Shown in pieces: positions 52,969-55,020 of a DNA stretch of 64,000 nt. Positions within the stretch are counted from its first letter, which is position 1; each line of letters begins with the position of its first letter. The DNA is from Schmidtea polychroa (Eukaryota): NCBI GenBank assembly GCA_044892525.1, contig CM097885.1, positions 72,602,001-72,666,000 on the forward strand, in the 5' to 3' direction. The notes under the pieces are model-generated. The model was given only the letters and a program-made list of their open reading frames with translations. It made no database searches and had not been told where the DNA came from. A program made the position numbers and the translations under genes.

Positions 52969-55020
52969 TTGCCAAGAACAGATAATGAGAGAAACCCGAG
53001 TTACGAAACAACCAGAGAGACTGGAACAATGATGGAGAAACGGGCAAAAGGAAGACCTAGGAAGCAAGGAGAAAAACCAGAATTCAAAACCAGAGAACAA
53101 CTGAAACAAGAACAAGGACAAGTCAGATTAGAGAAACTGGATAAAATAGTGTGGGATCTAAAAGAGGCCCAGCCAACAATCGAAAGAGGCGAAAAATGGA
53201 TACGAGAGCTAGTAAAAGATATGCTAATAATAACGAACCCACAATTGCGACGGTTATGGCAACGAAAAGTAGCAAGCGTAGATGCCAGACAGCTATGGAA
53301 TACAATATCCGGAATAATTCCGAAATTAATCAAAGAGAAGACAAAAACCACTAAAACCGATTGGGAAGAGACAAGAAGAGTAATTGAACAATTAACTTTA
53401 AACGCAAACGACGACGAACATCATTTAGTAGTATTAACGTATCTAATGTACAATTTGATGGGATTAGCAGCAAGGAAAATACCTAACAAACAATTCGCAA
53501 ATCATGTAGAAATGACCGTTACAATCATTGAGAATACAATCGAACCACATATTATCCGCGCCGGTGGGTGGAAAAGACTCATACAAGCGCCACGAAAAAA
53601 CGAGCAAGAGAGATCAATGCAAATTCGGTTGAAGAAATTGCTAAACGAGCTGGAATGGGAATTGCCATTGAAAGACCCAGCCAGCAGAAAAGCGTCGATT
53701 AATTCACTAATGATGACCATGATGATATGGATGCTCTGCACCAGTGGAGCCGCGGGATTTACCATTTACGACTGTGACAATTCGATAATAGGAGAAAGAT
53801 ACTCCCTGAGAGATATAGAGGAATGTAGACAGGCATCCCCGAATAAATTAGATATAGTAAAAAAGAAAGTCTCCTATCACGTATACCAAGAATCAGATTT
53901 CATCAGAACGCAAGCTAGAGAATGCGTAGTATCGAAGAAAGTGTTGGCATATTACTGTGGACAATACTCATATTCAACCCTTATATTACCTGGATTAGAT
54001 AAAGAAATAGTACCTATACAACGGGAAGACTGTAAAGAGCTTTTTAGAACCGGAGCGATGAGAATCAGGGATGGAGTAACAATACACGGACAAAGCGGAA
54101 TGATCAAGACGGAAAGTATCTATGTAGCCGGACGAGTAAAATCAACTGATGGATCATGTAACGGAGGTACATATACGATCAGAGGAGAAGTGATCTCGGG
54201 AGTAGTAGTAATTGAGTCCTACACAGTGGAGTTGAAGGAATATGAAGCACAATTCGACGCAAACAACTATCAAATGAAAACCAACCCAGCATGCAGAGCT
54301 ACGGAAAACGTGTGCAGAACGGGAATTTCGACTATAATCTATGAAGCTAACACCCAAAAATGCCGACTCCAATTGTTAAAAAGTGCTTTGTTCAATGAAG
54401 TAAAAGGAGAAATTTATGAAAACGAAGATGACGACGAAGAGAATGGAAACGTAAGGATGCGAAATGGGAAACCAGTTCCACCATCCCCCAAAGAAAAGAG
54501 ACTCACAACACAAAAAACACCAACGGCATTAATTACAGACGATCCAGATATCGGTATGAGATTCATCAGAGAAAAAGAGACCACCAAATGTGACAGCATA
54601 GTATATCGGACGAACTACGCAGGTATCTACATGTCCAGGCAAATAATAGACCGAGCAGTGGGAAAGGTAGCAACAGAGGACGTAAAATTGTACCTGTACG
54701 CCAATAACAAAATGGACTTTTTATTTCATCGAGGACAAACGACAATGCAAAAAGTGTATTACGATCTTATACAAAATGACTGTTCATTGAATAAAGAGAT
54801 ACTAAAAACAAAATTAGCCATCGCAATAACACACCCAGATAACACAATGCCATCACTCCCGTTACCGGATGGACATTTTGGTAGAATGGTGGGAGAGGTA
54901 ATGTATACATATGCATGTACCAAGACATTTGCGCGACTGCCAAGAAAGCCCACAATTCCACCTGGGAAATGCGCAAACGAGTTGGAAATTAGTTACAAAG
55001 GGCGAAACAGATTCGTTTAA
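52969..55020 (+). CDS. Polyprotein segment 2: AT-hook-like motif, Bcl-2-like domain, signal peptide and N-terminal part of a chuvirus-like fusion glycoprotein
   Basis: KGRPRK; IEPHIIRAGGWKRL (BH2-like); hydrophobic MMIWMLCTSGAAG then FTIYDC, YSLRDIEEC, DGSCNGGTY..GVVV, YANNKMDFL, GEVMYTYAC and CANELEISY. The frame is open from about 52840. Confidence 0.8.
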   Translation: MPRTDNERNPSYETTRETGTMMEKRAKGRPRKQGEKPEFKTREQLKQEQGQVRLEKLDKIVWDLKEAQPTIERGEKWIRELVKDMLIITNPQLRRLWQRKVASVDARQLWNTISGIIPKLIKEKTKTTKTDWEETRRVIEQLTLNANDDEHHLVVLTYLMYNLMGLAARKIPNKQFANHVEMTVTIIENTIEPHIIRAGGWKRLIQAPRKNEQERSMQIRLKKLLNELEWELPLKDPASRKASINSLMMTMMIWMLCTSGAAGFTIYDCDNSIIGERYSLRDIEECRQASPNKLDIVKKKVSYHVYQESDFIRTQARECVVSKKVLAYYCGQYSYSTLILPGLDKEIVPIQREDCKELFRTGAMRIRDGVTIHGQSGMIKTESIYVAGRVKSTDGSCNGGTYTIRGEVISGVVVIESYTVELKEYEAQFDANNYQMKTNPACRATENVCRTGISTIIYEANTQKCRLQLLKSALFNEVKGEIYENEDDDEENGNVRMRNGKPVPPSPKEKRLTTQKTPTALITDDPDIGMRFIREKETTKCDSIVYRTNYAGIYMSRQIIDRAVGKVATEDVKLYLYANNKMDFLFHRGQTTMQKVYYDLIQNDCSLNKEILKTKLAIAITHPDNTMPSLPLPDGHFGRMVGEVMYTYACTKTFARLPRKPTIPPGKCANELEISYKGRNRFV

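Follow-up and report, generated by a model that had tools for sequence, protein, structure and literature searches.

The window, a 64,000-nucleotide stretch of Schmidtea polychroa DNA, encodes a Bcl-2-like domain that is real and conserved. In sister copies of its host element, the domain is part of one Gag-Env-Pol polyprotein. It is maintained as a protein under strong purifying selection, and so are its flanks. We propose that it is a Bcl-2-fold cargo of a giant gypsy element of the Burro type, likely membrane-tethered, that would dampen Bax/Bak-type death, and we regard this reading as evenly poised between right and wrong. A putative pro-survival activity through BH3 binding could likewise go either way.

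The host element and its families

The host element is a gypsy-type LTR element of ~30.6 kb, made up of a 26,393-base period and an LTR of ~4.2 kb. Its domains are ordered Gag, ubiquitin-like, Bcl-2-like, Env, protease, RT, RNase H, integrase and ankyrin repeats (Table 1). The ubiquitin-like match, in the long insert at ~52376-52480, was weak (Pfam E 0.22), and Pfam detected no matrix domain in Gag. The window copy is split into five frames, with breaks near 52.9 kb, 55.0 kb, 56.5 kb and 58.7-58.9 kb. Its Gag-side frame breaks before the Bcl-2-like domain, which is carried by the frame 52843-55020 (+); a stop at 55018-55020 interrupts Env, and the protease-to-ankyrin region contains two frameshifts. 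Sister copies have open frames of 4,731-4,817 aa. A search of the element's own genome gave at least 150 matches to the domain at 94-100% identity. Among the matches listed, four had an internal stop and ~65, counted by eye, lay in open frames longer than 4,700 aa.

Table 1. Features of the element, in coordinates of the window.
Feature	Position	Strand	Evidence
5' LTR (~4.2 kb)	41505..45704	+	Repeats 26,393 and 52,786 bases downstream; starts TG
Gag (capsid, zinc knuckles) and long insert	48581..52927	+	Retrotrans_gag 6.9e-10, zf-CCHC 4.4e-12
Last clear protease-site-like motif upstream of the domain	52046..52070	+	Inferred from junction motif
Basic motif KGRPRK, presumably AT-hook-like	53047..53064	+	[KR]GRP[RK] at the same place in 5/7 families
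Extra helix preceding the Bcl-2 fold; loose likeness to BH3 in families B, D and F	53119..53166	+	Conservation
Bcl-2-like helical domain (helix 1 to the helix after BH2)	53179..53586	+	AF2, VIA, Foldseek, hhalign, Pfam
Central hydrophobic helix (alpha5), with the BH1 position before it lacking NWGR	53413..53472	+	Model helix 101-120, alignments
BH2-like region ending GGW	53530..53583	+	Sequence, alignment to Bcl-xL
Internal Env signal peptide (putative), likely membrane anchor	53698..53757	+	Hydropathy peak
Env (Monjiviricetes/gB-type fusion glycoprotein)	53758..55494	+	Pfam PF24664 (Monjiviricetes_fusion) E 5.9e-42 and 8.2e-23
Protease, RT, RNase H, integrase, ankyrin repeats, C-terminal membrane protein	56095..62778	+	Pfam, ORFs, hydropathy

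Several further features were observed in and around the element. A 253-aa ORF without a Pfam match lies inside the LTR (44419-45180, +), a RING-finger ORF (46148-46645, +; zf-C3HC4_3, E 1e-8) lies between the 5' LTR and gag, and a 73-nt tandem repeat (47238-47607) occupies the leader upstream of gag. The C-terminus of the polyprotein (61732-62778, +) follows a protease-site-like motif, has a signal-like stretch (61777-61836) and a transmembrane helix (62581-62637), and is probably a second surface protein. Just past the window end, downstream of the main ORF, there is a MATH/TRAF accessory ORF (L117:2-781, +; E 3e-25), beyond which are coiled-coil-like ORFs and a small ORF with two hydrophobic stretches. 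A second element copy shares an LTR with the first in a tandem arrangement with a period of 26,393 (window 41505-64000; L115-L119, C1:72666001-72710000). The tandem copies are 100.000% identical over 20 kb, the same broken frames included, and are explained either by tandem duplication in the very recent past or by duplication in the assembly.

Seven diverged element families carry the domain at the same position, just before the in-frame Env: A (that of the window), B (L061, L071), C (L081), D (L082, L101), E (L084), F (L091-L104) and G (L124). This retention agrees with the conservation in other copies that had been anticipated from the window sequence. The distance from the BH2 Trp to the YDC/FDC of Env was 46-74 residues in all seven families, and the position before the Env signal did not differ between small frames of 3.0-3.5 k aa and large ones of 4.7-4.8 k aa. 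Family B was recruited through the Pfam Bcl-2 search and family F through a search with D, which brings a selection bias into the survey; family G was recruited by its Env motif alone and provides an unbiased check of position. Over 249 aa, family G and the window share 35% identity, and family G had no Pfam match of its own.

Between family-A subfamilies, where pS was near saturation (0.74-0.76), the domain core was 93% identical with a pN/pS of 0.06. The N-terminal part of Env (88% identity) and the upstream linker (85% identity) each gave a pN/pS of 0.10, and the core values for families B and D were 0.22 and 0.17. Flank pN/pS was 0.04-0.12, which is also strong, so the domain is not singled out by the selection. 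We excluded the pairs involving L112 and L089 because the anchor motif was missing, and the Env-part values for L061/L071, L082/L101 and L091/L096 were left unused since frameshifts or locus ends may inflate them. Contigs of one sequencing run, which we guess to be RNA, cover the stretch and are evidence neither for nor against expression.

Sequence and structural evidence for a Bcl-2 fold

The two motifs quoted in the earlier note were both found on the + strand inside the frame 52843-55020, HLVVLTYLMYNLM at 53422-53460 and ENTIEPHIIRAGGWKRLI at 53530-53583, and helices were predicted throughout, matching the all-helical character that it had described. Bcl-2 was the sole family matched by Pfam on the segment (E 0.02, 15.9 bits). 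It also ranked first for all seven sequences from families A-E, none of which exceeded the curated PF00452 cut-off of 31.4 bits (window copy 15.9, best family 29.7). A control profile was built from seven non-retroelement Bcl-2 sequences of the same genome. It scored the domain at 12.7 bits, compared with a maximum of 7.7 for 1000 shuffles and -0.5 for the reversed sequence, and ranked the domain top among 249 six-frame segments of the window. A profile made from element sequences only matched the genome's other Bcl-2s with an hhalign probability of 95.3 and retrieved Bcl-xL and A1 from the PDB at E 3e-4; one designed helical bundle was among the top rows of these PDB searches and came first in one of them. 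The window sequence alone retrieved no Bcl-2 from the PDB, only two unrelated matches, and searches of protein collections with it (near and longer lengths, up to 2,000 aa; cluster representatives) gave no relatives. The support for Bcl-2 identity comes from the family alignment, and at this profile level sequence homology points to membership of the Bcl-2 fold superfamily.

To model the domain, AF2 was given an alignment of 15 natural element copies that included no known Bcl-2; a single-sequence model was poor (pLDDT 42) and was set aside. One of the five AF2 models was confident, with a pLDDT of 66.9 and a pTM of 0.62, and the remaining four reached 49.5-54.0. The best model predicts a helical bundle around a central hydrophobic hairpin (alpha5-alpha6). 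Foldseek against the PDB returned the Bcl-2 family in all 40 rows listed (TM 0.45-0.57; best E 7e-3), with no match for the domain model at E 0.001. Using VIA-align on 48,161 chains, Bcl-2-fold proteins filled the top 33 of 33 rows, BH3-binding members coming first and the top matches spanning 131-137 residues. Hydra Bcl-2-4 (Z 11.9, the best), Bcl-xL (11.8; rmsd 3.1 over 131 residues), Trichoplax Bcl-2L2 (11.3) and KSHV Bcl-2 (11.2) were effectively tied, and the first unrelated row had a Z of 6.4 over 74 residues. A VIA Z below ~13 can reflect a common arrangement among helical bundles, a caveat that is countered here because the matches cover most of the domain, lie five units above the unrelated rows and agree with the sequence profiles. 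In a viral structure library the named top rows were herpesviral and iridoviral Bcl-2s, with weak E-values.

Structure prediction and Foldseek therefore both give Bcl-2 folds, as the earlier note had claimed. Its further description of the domain as viral-style is unsupported, because cellular and herpesviral Bcl-2s tie for the best match; the divergent poxviral proteins A52, M11L, N1L, A46 and F1L reached only Z 6.0-8.2 (singly, A52 8.2, N1L 7.8 and A46 6.8). A chance resemblance, in which an unrelated helical spacer happens to contain GGW, would fit the sub-threshold Pfam score and the lack of PDB or protein-collection relatives when the window sequence is used alone. This explanation is largely refuted by the top rank of Bcl-2 in Pfam for 7/7 sequences from five families, the profile-profile probability, the agreement of the fold searches and the passed shuffle control, and we consider it highly improbable.

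We surveyed the BH motifs in 16 rows from the seven families. The BH1 motif NWGR was absent from 7/7 element families, so its loss, first remarked on in the window copy, extends to all of them; NWGR is present in the host Bcl-2 genes L034 and L038. The BH3 motif is defined by a Gly-Asp on alpha2, and this pair was absent from alpha2 of the window family. Since both NWGR and the BH3 Gly-Asp are missing, the groove may not bind BH3 peptides. The last Trp of BH2 was invariant (16/16 rows), and the first (W-x(5)-GW) was replaced by His in the window family and by Tyr in family G. The expected conservation of GGW in other copies held for five of the seven families, and for its last Trp in all, but families D and F read KFW. 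Ten family-A loci were picked for divergence; GGW is retained by nine of them and replaced by GEW in the tenth. Because selection by top score made the 30 best family-A loci identical to the query, they are uninformative on this point.

A tree of 17 rows was poorly supported at depth, with the element rows forming one side in 12% of bootstrap trees, a value that speaks neither for nor against a single origin. When the element profile was compared with the seven genomic Bcl-2s, the best host gene, L042, scored 29.6 bits and the multi-copy gene L053 scored 25.5, too weak for either to be named as donor. The genome also holds other Bcl-2 genes. Multi-copy small genes with introns and a hydrophobic tail (L046-L051, L059, L060; L123, C1:203692000-203701500) include some inverted pairs 7-9 kb apart; those at L123 lie on either side of ORFs bearing motifs of family-B polymerases (Pfam DNA_pol_B E 0.009), a setting suggestive of a carrier of the Polinton/adintovirus kind. 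A second multi-copy Bcl-2-like family has an intronless 152-aa ORF (L053-L058, L074) and is similar to L042. A canonical NWGR-bearing Bcl-2 gene occurs as a cluster of seven near-identical copies (L031-L037, C4:89.9-90.8 Mb), and a host Bak/Bax-like gene with a BH3-like exon (L120:9531-9697 and L043) is a candidate binding partner.

Predicted topology and possible roles

Conservation extends to the helix upstream of the fold, in which L9 is invariant (16/16 rows) and 25/25 residues are identical between subfamilies despite saturated synonymous sites; it was modelled at pLDDT 45-49 and was not confidently packed. Downstream of the fold, the signal-like stretch at 53698-53757 is followed by Env, which corroborates the placement of the domain just upstream of the Env signal peptide in the earlier note. 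The hydrophobic part of this stretch (53698-53739) lies ~43 residues after BH2, and its core of ~14 residues is short for a lasting anchor. The signal peptide is the only candidate for a C-terminal membrane anchor of the domain. Small residues occupy -3/-1 of the proposed cut, before FTIYDC, in 8/9 copies, and hydropathy places the Env transmembrane helix at 55438-55494.

A motif of the type R-[IVH]-x-x-[ML] marks the two ends of the protease as well as the junctions of RNase H with integrase and of integrase with the ankyrin repeats, although this protease-site-like pattern was picked by eye and has extra matches elsewhere. A weaker copy at 52544 falls within the ubiquitin-like part. The interval separating the domain from the signal peptide contains no such motif; upstream, the closest candidates lie at a distance of ~630-1130 nt. 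Release of the Bcl-2-like domain from the polyprotein, as earlier supposed, is accordingly doubtful, and the lack of a nearby protease-site-like motif makes a larger membrane-tethered product more likely. To judge from the sequence, the product is likely several hundred residues long and tethered rather than a free domain.

Collectively, these features suggest how the domain might reach the membrane. The element protease would cut far upstream, releasing the product from Gag, the internal Env signal would be inserted co-translationally, and signal peptidase would cut before FTIYDC. When a signal sequence is internal, the part of the chain upstream of it remains in the cytosol, with the signal peptide still attached once cleavage has occurred. 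The several-hundred-residue product would then consist of the ubiquitin-like part, the basic motif, the extra helix, the Bcl-2 fold and the anchor. The retained Env signal peptide may take the place of the tail anchor found in cellular Bcl-2s, and the tethered domain would dampen Bax/Bak-type death of the particle-producing cell. We also considered a stricter version, in which the Env-signal tail anchor ties anti-apoptotic activity one-to-one to fusogen synthesis, the upstream BH3-like helix and AT-hook-like motif regulate the domain or link it to the particle, and the fold works without NWGR. We find this version rather unlikely; if true, it would be a functional Bcl-2, lacking NWGR, in a reverse-transcribing element.

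The fold may serve another purpose. It could be a matrix-like membrane-tethered adaptor without any part in apoptosis: from the cytosolic side of the Env signal it would connect Env with Gag or nucleic acid as particles bud. The fixed position before the Env signal in 7/7 families with small and large frames, the basic GRP[RK] motif just upstream in 5/7 families, the erosion of the BH motifs while the fold was kept and the lack of a Pfam matrix domain in Gag would all suit such an assembly role. We nevertheless consider it unlikely, as the invariance of the BH2 Trp is shared with apoptotic Bcl-2s, and GAG-ENV-POL elements that may lack the domain are reported from nematodes and bryozoans in a paper whose available text does not mention Bcl (PMC13524379). 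Vaccinia A52 and B14 are described as having a Bcl-2 fold with no groove and no effect on apoptosis (PMC2494871), and this precedent, together with the loss of NWGR and the RING, MATH/TRAF, ankyrin and ubiquitin-like modules of the element, raises the alternative of a signalling decoy. Here the fold would be repurposed, like poxviral A52/B14/N1, to block innate-immune, ubiquitin or autophagy signalling via another surface. The model is nearer to groove-bearing Bcl-2s (Z 10-12) than to A52, N1L or A46, and these three are absent among the sequence-profile matches listed; we judge a decoy quite unlikely.

If the domain works, the element would be a clear case of a retroelement with an anti-death cargo like those of large DNA viruses, and an apoptosis regulator could be provided by the hundreds of young copies spread over at least seven families. 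Planarian regeneration depends on controlled cell death.

Comparison with Burro elements and other Bcl-2 systems

A BCL2-like motif directly ahead of an in-frame env has already been described for planarian Burro elements, including Burro/GYPSM1 of Schmidtea mediterranea (Jurka 2007, Grohme 2018, as reviewed in PMC6431247), and the Bcl-2-like domain is therefore already known as a Burro annotation. Like GYPSM1, the window's element exceeds 30 kb, has LTRs and encodes an ORF of ~4,800 aa (4,873 in GYPSM1, 4,731-4,817 in the window's family), and the order Gag, Ubi/SUMO-like, BCL2-like, in-frame Env, PR, RT, RH, IN and ankyrins is shared (PMC6431247). A single ~4,800-aa ORF with BCL2 before an in-frame env between gag and pol is found in the sister copies. 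Burro1/GYPSM1 has MATH and BIR inside ORF1, whereas the MATH/TRAF of the window's element is a downstream accessory ORF, as MATH also is in a Dugesia element (PMC6431247); a Pfam search of the window's five frames gave no BIR and no dUTPase. We call the element Burro-type on the basis of its size and layout. Burro cargo is rich in apoptosis and ubiquitin domains, and the review, in the portion consulted, gives the BCL2-like motif as annotation only, without structure, topology or function (PMC6431247). BURRO1 transcripts are reported to rise upon smedwi-2 knockdown (PMC8532177), and in the portion of PMC11410931 consulted Burro is mentioned for its size alone. Our literature search turned up no study of the structure or function of the Burro domain, although the Grohme 2018 supplements may add detail. 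The fold-level support, selection data, seven-family survey and testable topology given here are additions that we did not find in print.

Six GAG-ENV-POL elements of the HSV/gB type, Smed_errantivirus_1-6, have been described in S. mediterranea and likewise have Env between Gag and Pol (PMC13524379). Compared by eye, the nearest counterpart of the window Env is that of errantivirus_5, and errantivirus_1, 2, 3 and 6 correspond to families E, C, B and G, respectively (PMC13524379). An errantivirus_5 motif had no match in this genome, so the window family is a relative and not the same element. Such elements are also reported from nematodes and bryozoans, and the main text and seven supplement files of that report, as available, contain no mention of Bcl-2 (PMC13524379).

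The predicted fold resembles the cellular proteins Bcl-xL (3spf), Hydra Bcl-2-4 (6wgz) and schistosome BCL-2 (7jmt), with an rmsd of 3.1-3.5 A over 131-137 residues. With cellular pro-survival Bcl-2s the domain also shares the BH2 GGW and a hydrophobic stretch C-terminal to the domain. It differs from them in its 6-10% identity, absent NWGR, degenerate BH3 and embedding in a polyprotein, and its hydrophobic tail is the Env signal peptide, ~43 residues past BH2. The viral Bcl-2s KSHV KsBcl-2, EBV BHRF1 and ASFV A179L (Z 10.4-11.2) offer the likeness of a Bcl-2 fold on a mobile element, and Bcl2 homologs are also reported in adintoviruses/Polintons (PMC8502044). Those viral Bcl-2s are free-standing genes of DNA viruses or elements, whereas the one described here is a domain of a retroelement polyprotein.
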